Below are positions 33,279-37,234 of a DNA stretch of 64,000 nucleotides, piece after piece. The notes under the pieces were generated by a model. It ran no database searches. It was not told the DNA's origin and saw only the letters and a list, made by a program, of their open reading frames with translations. The position numbers and the translations under genes were made by a program. This stretch comes from Promethearchaeota archaeon. GTDB taxonomy: Archaea; Asgardarchaeota; Lokiarchaeia; Sigyniarchaeales; SOKP01. The stretch covers positions 160,001-224,000 of the forward strand of contig JAHPZE010000001.1 of assembly GCA_019058365.1 (NCBI GenBank), given 5' to 3'. Within the stretch, counting starts at the first letter, position 1; every line of letters begins with the position of its first letter.

Positions 33279-33554
33279 TTAAGCGCTAATCAAACGGAAT
33301 AATATAGAAGCATGAGGAATAAAGAATTCATCTTTACGTTTGATGACCACAGTGTGAAAATATTCTGCCAATCCTAAAAAACCACGGATAACCGATTCAT
33401 CTTCCTCAAATCTAAAAATTACTGTTGCAATAGCAGCTCCTGTATTAAAATTAACCTTATCATACACTCTTTCGTCAATTAAGGGTATCTTTAGCTCATT
33501 AACAATTTCATAAACCCGTTTAATGAATAGTTCTCGCTTAGGCATTTTGTACAA
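33279..33554 (-). CDS. Hypothetical protein
   Basis: Clean 88-91 aa ORF with globular composition; likely starts at MPKREL. Confidence 0.65.
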   Translation of the reverse strand: MYKMPKRELFIKRVYEIVNELKIPLIDERVYDKVNFNTGAAIATVIFRFEEDESVIRGFLGLAEYFHTVVIKRKDEFFIPHASILFRLISA

Positions 33555-33818: not shown

Positions 33819-34538
33819 GTGGTTTCAAAAGAACAGAAGAAAATTGAACGAGTTATTAATTTTATGAAAAAGGGTTTAACATCATTAGCAGACGATCTAG
33901 AGGAAACTGTTAAGGGGATAAATGACTTTATTAAATCATTAGCTAAAGCTCAGAAAGATTTGAAAGAAGTATCTGTGGTTGAAGAAGTTCAAACAATAAG
34001 CACTTCCTCTAAAAAAATAGTAGCCACCACAAGTGAGGGTGCTAAAACTGCCGCTGCTAGCACTTTATTTAGTCTTTTAAGTAGTAGTGGAGGTGCTCCC
34101 GTTGCAGCACCTGGTTCAACGCCAGTACCTACTGCAGCCTTGACACCAGGTATTCCTTCAGCTCCTGTCCCTCCTTCTGGTGGGGGACCTCCAAAAGCAC
34201 CTAGTTCTGGCCCCCCTAAAGCTCCTAGTGGAGGTCCTCCTAAACGACCTGGGTTACCACCAGCTCCAAAATTACCCCCTACTAGTGGAGGACCACCTAA
34301 GGCTCCTAGTTCAGCCCCTCAGGCACCTTCAGGAACAGGACCTCCAAAACCTCCAAGTACAGGGCCACCTTCTGCGCCCGCATTCGCAAAAAGACCTGTA
34401 GCACCTCCTGGTGGGATCACCCCTGCCGCTCCCTCTGCTCCAGCTGTTGCACCTAAGCCTGGTGGAGGGTTAGGTTCATTACGTGACGAAATGCTTGATG
34501 AATTGAATCGACTTAAGAAAATTATGAGAGGAGAATAG
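33819..34538 (+). CDS. Coiled-coil / proline-rich protein with C-terminal WH2- or VASP-like amphipathic helix
   Basis: N-terminal heptad helix, Pro/Gly/Ala-rich middle, C-terminal GSLRDEMLDELNRLKKIMRGE. Confidence 0.8.
   Translation: MVSKEQKKIERVINFMKKGLTSLADDLEETVKGINDFIKSLAKAQKDLKEVSVVEEVQTISTSSKKIVATTSEGAKTAAASTLFSLLSSSGGAPVAAPGSTPVPTAALTPGIPSAPVPPSGGGPPKAPSSGPPKAPSGGPPKRPGLPPAPKLPPTSGGPPKAPSSAPQAPSGTGPPKPPSTGPPSAPAFAKRPVAPPGGITPAAPSAPAVAPKPGGGLGSLRDEMLDELNRLKKIMRGE
34177..34380 (+). repeat. GPPK(A/R/P)P(S/G) peptide repeats (about 6 copies)
   Basis: GGPPKAPSS, GPPKAPSG, GPPKRPG, GGPPKAPSS, GPPKPPST, GPPSAP; locally GC-rich. Confidence 0.8.
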
Positions 34539-34568
34539 TCTTTTATTAATAAGAGACTATATTTTTTT
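34535..34568 (+). terminator. Hairpin plus T-tract terminator after the Pro-rich gene
   Basis: ATAGTCTTTTATT/AATAAGAGACTAT near-perfect palindrome (one G-U pair) followed by T7. Confidence 0.6.
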
Positions 34569-34814
34569 CTAATAGTAATATTATACTATTTTTATGTTTT
34601 TTAAAAGAGATTTTGTTTTTAATTTAAAAAACGATTATATCCCAATTCTTTGTGGTTTCATAAATCGTAGTGGTTTTGCCTTTTATTCAGCTCTATGCTT
34701 TAATTTTTCAAGATTTTTTTCTTTTTTCTTTCATTTTTATCCATTCTTTGAATTATTCATAATAGAGATTAAATTCAATAAAGTTTTTTTAGGGTTTAGT
34801 AAAAATTATATATA

Positions 34815-35561
34815 ATGTTTGAACATAGCTATTTTATATGTGAGGAAGAAATCCCTATTATTGTACCTAAAAGGATTATGGTTTTTGCTGGCCATCCCGA
34901 TGATGAGTTAATATCTTGTGGGGGTACGCTATTAAAATATCAAAAACTCGGTTCAGAAATCATAATTGTAATAGCTACTTTTGGCTTAGGAGGCTATGCT
35001 AAGGAAAAACATAAAGATAATATAGCTGAAAGAAGGGAAAAAGAATTAGAGTTAGTAAAGAAGGTTTTAAAAAGTGACATTATTGAGTTAGGGTATTCAG
35101 ATTTACAAATTGAAAGAGAAAAAATCTCTCAGATTACTAATCTCATCCGAGATTATAAACCTCAAGTAATTTTGTTACCTCATTACTCAGATTTTCACCG
35201 TGTGCATCGAAATTTATCTTTAATCACACGTGAAGCAATATATCACTGTACTACAGGTAAAGCATACGGCGGACATCTAAGGAGTTGGGTTCCTCATGGT
35301 GCCTATTATTATGAATCACCATCATGTAAATTCGAATACATACAAGGATCTGTATTTGTTATAGTGAATATAGAAGATTACTGGGAAAAGAAAAAAGATA
35401 TTTTTAACCAAATATATACATCTCAAAAAGAAGTTTTAGAGCGTGTTATAGATTGGGCGGAGGATACTGCAATTCTGAGGGGAAATGAAATAAATGCTGC
35501 TTTTGGTGAAGCTTTTATGCCTGAGACTACATATACTCCATTAAAAATTTTATTACAATAA
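34815..35561 (+). CDS. PIG-L/LmbE family de-N-acetylase
   Basis: VFAGHPDDE, RREKE, IRDYKPQVI, HRVH (canonical HxDH is degenerate), GEAF. Confidence 0.88.
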   Translation: MFEHSYFICEEEIPIIVPKRIMVFAGHPDDELISCGGTLLKYQKLGSEIIIVIATFGLGGYAKEKHKDNIAERREKELELVKKVLKSDIIELGYSDLQIEREKISQITNLIRDYKPQVILLPHYSDFHRVHRNLSLITREAIYHCTTGKAYGGHLRSWVPHGAYYYESPSCKFEYIQGSVFVIVNIEDYWEKKKDIFNQIYTSQKEVLERVIDWAEDTAILRGNEINAAFGEAFMPETTYTPLKILLQ

Positions 35562-35654
35562 AAGTACGGAGATTTTTTTAATAATTAAAATATTATATTA
35601 GATATACTAGTTTAGGCTTAATATCTTAAAATTAAATTCAGAACCTATTAAGGC

Positions 35655-36776
35655 ATGGGAAATCTAACAATAGTTCTTGATATTGGTCAGTTCAGCACTA
35701 AAATTGGATTTGCAGGAGAGGATACACCATCTCAAGTTTTCCTAACAATGGTTGGAAAACCTAAATATCAAAGTGTAGATGTCAGTTATAAATCTAAGCA
35801 ATCTCATGAAGATGAAATATATGTAGGAGATGAAATTCAATCAATTGGATTATATAAGATTTTTCATCCTATTGAAAAAGGAATTGTTGTGGATTGGACT
35901 CATTTTGAGAATATTATTGATTATATTTTTTACAATTTGAGAGTAGATCCAACTCTTGTTAATGTATTATTTGCTGTACATCCATTATTTCCATATAATG
36001 ACTTAGAGAAAATATTTAAGTTATTTTTAGAAAGATATCAATGTATGGCATTTTATCCAGTATTAGATTCAATGCTAACTCTATACTCCGGTGGTTTCCA
36101 AACAGGATTAATCGTAGAAATAGGTGATAGCAATACACGAATTGTCCCGATTTATGAAGGATATAAGTTAGAGCATGCAGTAAGAATCTTAGATATTGGT
36201 GGAAGAGTATTAACTCACCAAATGGAACAGATTTTAGAATCTATTGGATGGTCAGTCGATTCTTCTATACGCAGAGAGTTAGTAAGAGTTTTAAAGGAAA
36301 AAGCCTGTTTTGTATCTTTAGATTATAAAGAAGATTTGAAGCGAAGTGAACAGTATGAGAAAGAATATTCGCTTCCTGATGGTTCTACAATTTCTCTCAA
36401 TAAAGAAAGATTTATTATTCCAGAATTATTATTTAAGCCTACTTCAGAATTAGAAGAAGATGCATTACATATAGCCATTATGGATGTAATTGAAGCCTGT
36501 GATTTAGACATACGTCCGGAGTTATTAAATAATATTTTTCTTTCGGGTGGTTCATCTATGTTTCCTAATTTAAAATCACGTATCTATCAAGAATTAGAAT
36601 TAGAGTTAGTAAGACGAAAGAAAAAAAATTTAGGAATTAGAATTATCGCTCCAATGGAACGAACATTTTCTGTATGGATTGGAGGATCAATTTTGGCAAT
36701 GATTCCCGAATTTTCTCAAAATTGGATTACACGGTTAAAATATTTTGATGAAGGAATACCACCTAATTTACTTTAA
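35655..36776 (+). CDS. Actin-family protein (divergent Asgard actin-related protein)
   Basis: IVLDIG..TKIGFAGEDTP, YVGDE, PIEKG, LYSGGFQTGLIVEIGD, VPIYEGY, DIGGRVLT, KEKACFV, YSLPDG, ERFIIPELLF, LSGGSSMFP, FSVWIGGSILA; colinear with eukaryotic actin. Confidence 0.95.
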   Translation: MGNLTIVLDIGQFSTKIGFAGEDTPSQVFLTMVGKPKYQSVDVSYKSKQSHEDEIYVGDEIQSIGLYKIFHPIEKGIVVDWTHFENIIDYIFYNLRVDPTLVNVLFAVHPLFPYNDLEKIFKLFLERYQCMAFYPVLDSMLTLYSGGFQTGLIVEIGDSNTRIVPIYEGYKLEHAVRILDIGGRVLTHQMEQILESIGWSVDSSIRRELVRVLKEKACFVSLDYKEDLKRSEQYEKEYSLPDGSTISLNKERFIIPELLFKPTSELEEDALHIAIMDVIEACDLDIRPELLNNIFLSGGSSMFPNLKSRIYQELELELVRRKKKNLGIRIIAPMERTFSVWIGGSILAMIPEFSQNWITRLKYFDEGIPPNLL

Positions 36777-36889: not shown

Positions 36890-37234
36890 ATGAATATGGA
36901 TGATTTAGCAGAAAATAAGTTTTACAAACCAAGTTATTCCCATTTGTTCAATAGAATTAAGGATATTAAAACACCAATAAAAAATGAAATATTAATTGCC
37001 CTTCTTGATGGTCATTGGCATTCTGAATTAGAACTAATAAGAGTTACTAAAAGACAGCATGGATTCATCGGAAGTGTTACTTTGGGTACAATGGTAACTT
37101 CATTGAATCATTACATTAAAAATAACTATCTGCAGAAGAAGATAGTAAATAGTAAGCTTTATTATAAGATATCAGATAATTACGTTGGACTTACGAGAGC
37201 AGCGTATAGGTTTGACGCAAACGATTTCCTTTAA
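36890..37234 (+). CDS. Hypothetical winged-helix-like protein
   Basis: EILIALLDGHWHSELELIR...helix...YLQKKIVNSKLYYKIS beta-wing pattern. Confidence 0.6.
   Translation: MNMDDLAENKFYKPSYSHLFNRIKDIKTPIKNEILIALLDGHWHSELELIRVTKRQHGFIGSVTLGTMVTSLNHYIKNNYLQKKIVNSKLYYKISDNYVGLTRAAYRFDANDFL

Follow-up and report, generated by a model that had tools for sequence, protein, structure and literature searches.

Does the actin of Asgard archaea have assembly factors or membrane linkers of its own, and is one of them encoded beside an actin paralogue in the stretch of DNA presented above? The stretch as a whole (64,000 nt of a Promethearchaeota genome, hereafter the window) contains a gene for a 239-aa protein upstream of an actin-family gene, and the original prediction, made from the letters alone, took it for a WASP/VASP-like protein with a WH2-like end, paired with an actin-related protein (ARP). 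To our knowledge, no Asgard nucleator, elongator or membrane-actin linker is known. Asgard archaea form dynamic actin-filled protrusions, and the actin regulators recognised in the literature to late 2025 are profilins and gelsolins only (bioRxiv 10.1101/2025.11.30.690169). The protein analysed here belongs to an undescribed protein family that is present in most Asgard archaea; this family is nearly phylum-wide, occurs at about one copy per genome, is strongly conserved, and is built like eukaryotic tethers and assembly factors. The reading that we favour, with a probability of roughly 40%, is that the protein is an adaptor composed of anchor, spacer and hook, the end helix of which docks on an actin-family protein in the manner of arcadin-2.

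The protein and its family

The gene and the parts of its product are located in the window as follows.

33819-34538, + strand: target gene, GTG start, 239-codon open frame; 239-aa head-spacer-hook protein with approx. 300 homologues
33828-33971, + strand: N-terminal long helix (residues 4-51), AlphaFold2 (AF2) predicted local distance difference test (pLDDT) >90, with invariant surface residues
34041-34082, + strand: short conserved helix AKTAAASTLFSLLS (residues 75-88) predicted by AF2, with an LFxLLxG motif that is retained in distant members
34101-34460, + strand: disordered Pro-rich spacer with GPPxAP units, an invariant LPPAPKLPP (34254-34280) and FAKRP, recognised from AF2, the alignment and a GC island
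34470-34526, + strand: putative C-terminal docking helix (residues 218-236), a portable module, AF2 pLDDT approx. 90, with L, M, E, R and K invariant phylum-wide

The AF2 model, built on a 32-sequence alignment, consists of three helices (48 residues at positions 4-51, then 75-88 and 218-236) with disorder between them. The Pro-rich stretch covers approximately residues 95-214 (approx. 120 aa) and includes five GPPK units; it has two consecutive prolines at most, and long polyproline runs of the profilin-binding type are absent from the protein. At the DNA level, the Pro-rich part forms a GC island (0.54 vs. approx. 0.30 in the surroundings). The C-terminal tail GSLRDEMLDELNRLKKIMRGE is present as originally noted, and the predicted architecture of helical head, Pro-rich linker and conserved terminal helix is borne out by the reading of the open reading frame (ORF), the AF2 model and the homologue alignment. 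That the head is a coiled coil is an inference, resting on heptad-like spacing and on the prediction of one long helix; the N-terminal helix is probably an oligomerisation or partner-binding head.

A word-indexed search returned 298 unnamed proteins of 206-247 aa that are homologous to the target, and those bearing a label come from Asgard (Promethearchaeota) assemblies; the window's own genome has a single copy. The last 25 residues are essentially invariant among the homologues. Within the 32-member alignment, the invariant blocks are the N-terminal helix (R11, F15, K18, G19, L20, D36, F37, S40, L41, K43, D47 and L48), TVSTSSKK, the short helix, LPPAPKLPP, FAKRP and the tail GGGL-S-SLRDEMLxELxRLKKIMRGE, with the GPPxAP units varying. 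A full-length profile detects the protein in 182 of 400 Asgard genomes. By GTDB family (f1 being the window's own family and f3 its sister family), it is found in 118/134 genomes of f1, 14/19 of f19 and 4/4 of f27, and it is nearly universal in the window's own order. Distant members retain the head helix, an LFxLLxG-type motif, the Pro-rich spacer and the end helix, for which the consensus is [GS]-L-[RK]-x-E-M-[LM]-x-E-[LI]-x-R-[LI]-K-x-[ILM]-[MFI].

No paper describing this family was found in a literature search. Scans of the target against Pfam and NCBIfam matched no family (only two sub-threshold Pfam matches of the coiled-coil type were obtained), the family profile had no match among PDB sequences, and an ESM Atlas search returned the protein's own cluster alone. 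The sole case of a longer, fused form, a 549-aa TIR-containing protein on a 2-kb contig, is probably a gene-calling artefact.

The terminal helix as a portable module

A HMMER search of 1.84 billion representative sequences with the end helix yielded 116 matches, of which every named or checked one is from Asgard archaea; this exhaustive search found no eukaryotic relatives. The helix is carried by proteins of several kinds. It forms the C-terminus of multi-pass membrane proteins (509-631 aa), or the C-terminus of proteins in which one N-terminal transmembrane segment is followed by a coiled coil and a Pro-rich spacer; it is present near the N-terminus, two or three times in tandem, in proteins that end in a Cys-rich domain; and one or two modules follow Ras/Roc-type GTPase domains. 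A profile restricted to this helix detects it in 340 of 400 Asgard genomes, in 83 of the 90 that are of high quality and in 73 of the 85 genera; most genomes have a single copy. In most lineages other than those with the soluble protein, the helix is borne by membrane-anchored proteins with the same layout of coil, spacer and helix. Among well-assembled genomes, the single carrier is the form with one transmembrane segment in f9, f13, f18 and f31 and the multi-pass form in f16.

The deep synteny of the anchored form with a housekeeping gene, ribose-5-phosphate isomerase A, suggests that this form is old. The isomerase gene adjoins membrane-anchored carriers in f9, f13 and f31 (sampled loci L105, L107, L108 and L110). 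The end helix, a nearly invariant amphipathic stretch of 18-20 residues, is conserved over approximately two-thirds of its circumference, charged positions included, more as would be expected of a buried docking helix than of a plain coiled coil.

Some minor observations concern the carriers themselves. A second helix-bearing family (P0293, P0298, P0351, P0307 and P0354) has one to three helix copies followed by a Cys-rich domain of the form CPxCG ... GIPCCxC[FY]K, and some of its members bear an N-terminal Ras/Roc-type GTPase domain. The window's own genome encodes a further, weak helix carrier (C7:125034-125525, + strand, C denoting contigs of this genome), which lies 3.6 kb from a gelsolin-domain gene (C7:128300-129436, - strand). 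Genes for Arf-family GTPases are found immediately downstream of a membrane-anchored carrier in f18 (L106:8763-9713, + strand) and approximately 2 kb upstream of a soluble carrier in f1 (L003:3381-3908, + strand). An Arf GTPase has also been reported in the Lokiactin co-immunoprecipitation from Candidatus Lokiarchaeum ossiferum.

A proposed mode of action

According to the favoured reading, the head would oligomerise and/or bind an 88-aa protein with which it is co-inherited (see below), the Pro-rich spacer would provide flexible reach, and the end helix would dock, helix in groove, on a conserved cytosolic partner. This partner would most likely belong to the actin family (as a rule the main Lokiactin and, in f1, possibly the neighbouring paralogue as well), and the docking mode might be like that of the arcadin-2 C-terminal helix on crenactin, or of WH2 and VASP F-actin-binding (FAB) helices on actin. 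In this way, the family might link actin to a membrane anchor or an oligomeric one, or else concentrate it, sequester it or bring it to that site. An actin-family receptor appears most likely because of the f1 gene order, the proximity of companion and actin genes in L. ossiferum, a weak FAB register and the arcadin-2 precedent. The likeness to arcadin-2, WH2 and VASP proteins is meant as a likeness in the way of working, and homology is no part of the claim.

Arcadin-2 of Pyrobaculum, a regulator of crenactin, comprises a core, a non-conserved linker and a 17-residue C-terminal helix that lies in the hydrophobic groove of the actin-family protein; the helix alone carries the activity, and the gene adjoins the actin gene (PMC5173319, PDB 5LY3). 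What the two proteins have in common is architecture only, i.e., a core, an unstructured linker and a small conserved C-terminal helix. Arcadin-2 differs in having neither a Pro-rich repeat spacer nor a long N-terminal helix, and its helix relies on tryptophan. Moreover, arcadin-2 is confined to Thermoproteales, where its linkage to crenactin is general, whereas the actin linkage of the target is a feature of one family. A second analogy is provided by tethers of the ZipA type, which have an anchor, a long P/Q-rich linker and a polymer-binding end. The logic of anchor, spacer and binding end is similar, and most Asgard lineages bear the module on an N-terminal transmembrane anchor; however, the binding end of the target is a single helix rather than a globular domain, and the comparison is one of analogy only.

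If the helix does bind Lokiactin, the family would supply the missing link, and the origin of regulated actin assembly would become testable with a 20-residue peptide. If it instead binds the MIT domain of Vps4 (an alternative weighed below), this would be the first carrier of a MIT-interacting motif (MIM) outside ESCRT-III in archaea, and the reach of the ESCRT machinery would be wider; each of the two outcomes would be informative. A bolder version of actin docking holds that the end helix is a true actin-groove ligand and that the family is the missing Asgard factor coupling Lokiactin to membranes or oligomeric hubs. On this view, the ancestral form would have been anchored in the membrane, and the soluble form with its 88-aa partner would have arisen in Lokiarchaeia and certain further lineages. 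The family would be an archaeal equivalent of WH2/VASP-type assembly factors, either ancestral or evolved independently, and would work via clustered single helices on Pro-rich arms. Taken as a whole, this version seems to us quite unlikely.

Linkage to an actin paralogue

The features that surround the target gene in the window are listed below.

33279-33554, - strand: 88-91-aa alpha/beta protein, conserved neighbour of the soluble form (homologue, synteny and AF2 data)
34536-34568, + strand: terminator-like hairpin overlapping the target stop codon, plus a T7 run, read directly from the sequence
34815-35561, + strand: PIG-L family deacetylase (PIG-L/BshB-like), optional insert, Pfam 83.5 bits
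35655-36776, + strand: divergent actin paralogue of an order-specific ARP-like clade, Pfam Actin 300 bits
36890-37234, + strand: 114-aa ORF after the actin paralogue, recurring in f1 loci, without a Pfam match

The co-oriented actin-family gene 1.1 kb downstream is real: 1,116 bp separate the target stop from the actin start, and the target, PIG-L and actin genes are all on the + strand. The terminator-like hairpin and the PIG-L gene that had been noted between the target and the actin gene are likewise confirmed, the former by its sequence (a 6-bp stem, TAGTCT/AGACTA, at 34536-34541 and 34554-34559, with the T7 run at 34562-34568) and the latter by Pfam.

The genome encodes six actin-family proteins, among which the window copy ranks fourth by Pfam score and is approximately 40% identical to the main Lokiactin-type copies; the main Lokiactin of this genome is encoded at C39:111971-113083. 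In a maximum-likelihood tree, it falls into a clade (support 100/100) with the second actins of two f3 genomes (L063 and L064), one of which is L. ossiferum B-35 (orthologous actin UYP44126.1). This clade is restricted, in the present sample, to the window's order (f1 and f3). The L. ossiferum homologue of the target is encoded at genome positions 729,373-730,167. Five public-assembly loci and approximately 30 loci from GTDB genomes define the gene order in f1: the small gene (- strand), the target, an optional PIG-L gene, the actin paralogue, an ORF of approximately 115 aa and a topoisomerase gene (- strand). Where an f1 locus is long enough to show it, the target almost without exception adjoins the actin paralogue directly or nearly so.

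Weighing the candidate partners

Several observations weigh against docking on an actin-family protein. The pairing with an ARP claimed in the original prediction holds inside f1, and a synteny check across lineages found the linkage kept there but not elsewhere: the target lies 44 and 273 kb from the orthologous actin in f3, genomes of three families further removed contain the target without any member of the window's actin clade, and actin is not a neighbour of target or helix carriers in f5, f7, f9, f13, f16, f18, f19, f27 or f31. As linkage is limited to f1 and the target occurs in lineages without the paralogue clade, the linkage represents one inherited gene order; the target family is older and wider than the window's actin paralogue. 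In one genome the target coexists with a single actin gene, which rules out the paralogue as the general partner. The neighbours of anchored carriers are housekeeping genes (ribose-5-phosphate isomerase at four loci, a PIN-ATPase-KH protein, eRF1 and ribosomal proteins), and no protein of the expected mass is among the listed rows of the L. ossiferum Lokiactin co-immunoprecipitation table, which is a weak negative. Genomes of the module-less class retain actin in 12 of 14 cases; the module-less families have ESCRT-III in 7/7 genomes (f24) and 0/5 genomes (f25), and phyletic co-loss is therefore uninformative as to actin vs. ESCRT. The Pfam hidden Markov model (HMM) of WH2 (PF02205) does not match the target by hmmscan at E<=1, and a search of the whole genome at E<=10 gave two chance matches elsewhere and none on the target. 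R-[LI]-K is kept within the family, but the residue after it, where the target has the second K of LKK, may be K, E, S, G or R. Finally, the module profile aligned by hhalign gives a probability of 68% (P 5e-5) with the ESCRT-III tail profile vs. 2% (P 0.023) with the VASP FAB motif. WH2 membership, as originally proposed, must be abandoned in view of the negative PF02205 result, the variable second K and the AF2 model, in which a single continuous helix (218-236) passes through LKK with no helix-linker-LKK geometry. Conservation of LKK had been named beforehand as a refutation test; the first K is kept, but the second is E, S, G or R in distant members. The resemblance to the human VASP FAB motif (sequence from PMC10340426) is weak. 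A direct hhalign comparison of the end helix with the FAB 20-mer finds one register (44% identity over 16 columns, P 0.013, probability 3%), namely L-x-[DE]-E-M-x3-L-x-[RK]-x-[RK]-K, a pattern that was defined post hoc and occurs once in the 1.35 million ORF residues of the genome; BLASTP against the motif gave no match, and no solved structure containing FAB was found. Like WH2 and FAB regions, the target has an amphipathic helix with a basic end, preceded by Gly-rich and Pro-rich sequence and accompanied by a putative oligomerisation element, and the helix is tandem in some carriers and very C-terminal in others. The target helix is, however, longer (approx. five turns), lacks the helix-linker-LKKV geometry and has a variable second K, and the protein differs from Ena/VASP and WASP in being without EVH1, EVH2 tetramerisation and VCA parts (no EVH1, tetramerisation or VCA element appeared in the Pfam scan) and without polyproline runs. 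To judge from its sequence, the target is not a recognisable WH2, WASP or VASP protein. It is highly improbable, then, that it is a true nucleation-promoting or elongation factor of the WASP/VASP type, with a WH2 domain and a profilin-recruiting polyproline, acting together with the neighbouring ARP. The order of modules does resemble that of eukaryotic nucleation-promoting factors and Ena/VASP, and in f1 the gene stands beside the ARP gene in the same orientation. Yet this ARP clade is confined to one order, its gene is not linked to the target in the sister family, and in the window the two genes are separated by a terminator-like element and an unrelated gene; in addition, Loki-type profilins are reported not to bind polyproline (PMC8410842), and the 116 end-helix matches include no eukaryotic relatives. 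Overall, the WASP/VASP reading is only partly supported, in that the architecture is compatible with an actin-groove binder.

The end helix might instead be a MIM1-type motif that docks on the Vps4 MIT domain, with the invariant LPPAP as a MIM2-like helper, so that the family recruits Vps4 to an anchor or is a Vps4 substrate, independently of ESCRT-III. Asgard ESCRT-III tails have been proposed as MIM1-like ligands of Vps4 MIT (PMC7240154), and the fourth-best match of the module HMM among the 29,347 ORFs of the window's own genome is the extreme C-terminus of an ESCRT-III protein whose gene adjoins vps4 and which shares E-[LM]-x-x-E-L-N-R-L-K with the target. (The two genes, at C46:187317-188021 on the - strand and from C46:188165 onward on the + strand, are divergently adjacent.) In six genomes, 14 of 15 ESCRT-III proteins end in a core E-[ILV]-x-[KR]-[LM]-[KR] in MIM1 register, and LPx[VAT]P precedes most of these cores in both ESCRT-III classes. 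The likeness comprises an E-[IL]-x-[KR]-L-K core, hydrophobic residues in register i, i+4, i+7 and an upstream element of the LPx[VA]P type; in addition, a flexible linker leads to the helix at the extreme C-terminus in the target and in ESCRT-III proteins alike, and the putative receptor is encoded in the same genome, where Vps4 bears the only clear MIT domain. On the other hand, a reciprocal HMM built from ESCRT-III tails misses the target, the ESCRT-III tail of the window's own genome comes only ninth in its ranking, and a PDB-wide search with the module returns generic coiled coils with ELxRLK and no MIM1 peptide, the likeness being in part of generic coiled-coil character. The hhalign score given above is inflated because both alignments were anchored on one core pattern. 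ESCRT-III tails are shorter and much less conserved than the module and lack its invariants L-7, R-6, M-3, I+7 and M+8, and the target has no ESCRT-III core: a cryptic one was sought and rejected (no Snf7 (PF03357) Pfam match, hhalign probability 4% against 15 Asgard ESCRT-III proteins). MIMs do not typically occur as tandem internal copies, no ESCRT gene synteny was found in any lineage examined, f24 has ESCRT-III in all seven genomes and no module, and across the six genomes no pattern of co-variation between the module and ESCRT-III tails is visible. The MIM1-like caveat of the original prediction is accordingly at least as well supported by sequence as WH2/VASP, although the reciprocal HMM and PDB searches fail to establish it, and we consider docking on Vps4 unlikely. 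A scaffold unrelated to both actin and Vps4 is a possible explanation, somewhat less probable in our view than docking on an actin-family protein: the helix would bind another Asgard partner (e.g., a factor linked to small GTPases) or self-associate in a helical bundle. No known motif is matched more than weakly; the hydrophobic residues are spaced as in heptads, and among PDB entries coiled coils are the best look-alikes. Ras/Roc-type GTPases are fused to one or two modules, two lineages have an Arf-family GTPase gene beside or close to carriers, self-folding is conceivable for proteins with two or three modules in tandem, and neighbourhoods outside f1 give no functional hint. Against this, near-invariant charged positions across the phylum point to a specific, conserved receptor rather than a generic coiled coil, the 88-aa neighbour is excluded as a general receptor, and genomic context offers no candidate receptor.

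The companion protein and other neighbours

Adjacency between the target and the 88-91-aa gene is not limited to f1 but recurs, in differing orientations, in f5, f7 and f19, so that this gene is a more deeply conserved neighbour of the target than the actin paralogue; in L. ossiferum, it lies nine genes from the orthologous actin. Its product has 389 Asgard homologues and no Pfam match. AF2 yields a confident alpha/beta model (pLDDT 88.6, predicted template modelling score 0.80) in the order helix, three-residue strand, strand, helix and three strands, for which no convincing PDB match was found (Foldseek best E 0.3, VIA-wide best Z 4.4); an ESM Atlas search returned its own cluster alone. At the family level, the protein is present wherever the soluble full-length target occurs (f1-f7, f19, f26 and f27) and absent where only membrane-anchored carriers occur (f9, f11, f13, f16, f28 and f29), a pattern rather than a statistic, as related genomes are not independent. 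Since its presence tracks the soluble form and not the anchored carriers, the 88-aa protein goes with the head of the target and not with the end helix. As a general receptor of the end helix it is ruled out by its absence where membrane-anchored carriers occur.

The PIG-L gene is missing from a substantial minority of f1 loci and is probably an insertion into the target-actin pair, unrelated to it. The 114-aa ORF downstream of the actin paralogue (36890-37234) has relatives in f1 loci at 51-78% identity.

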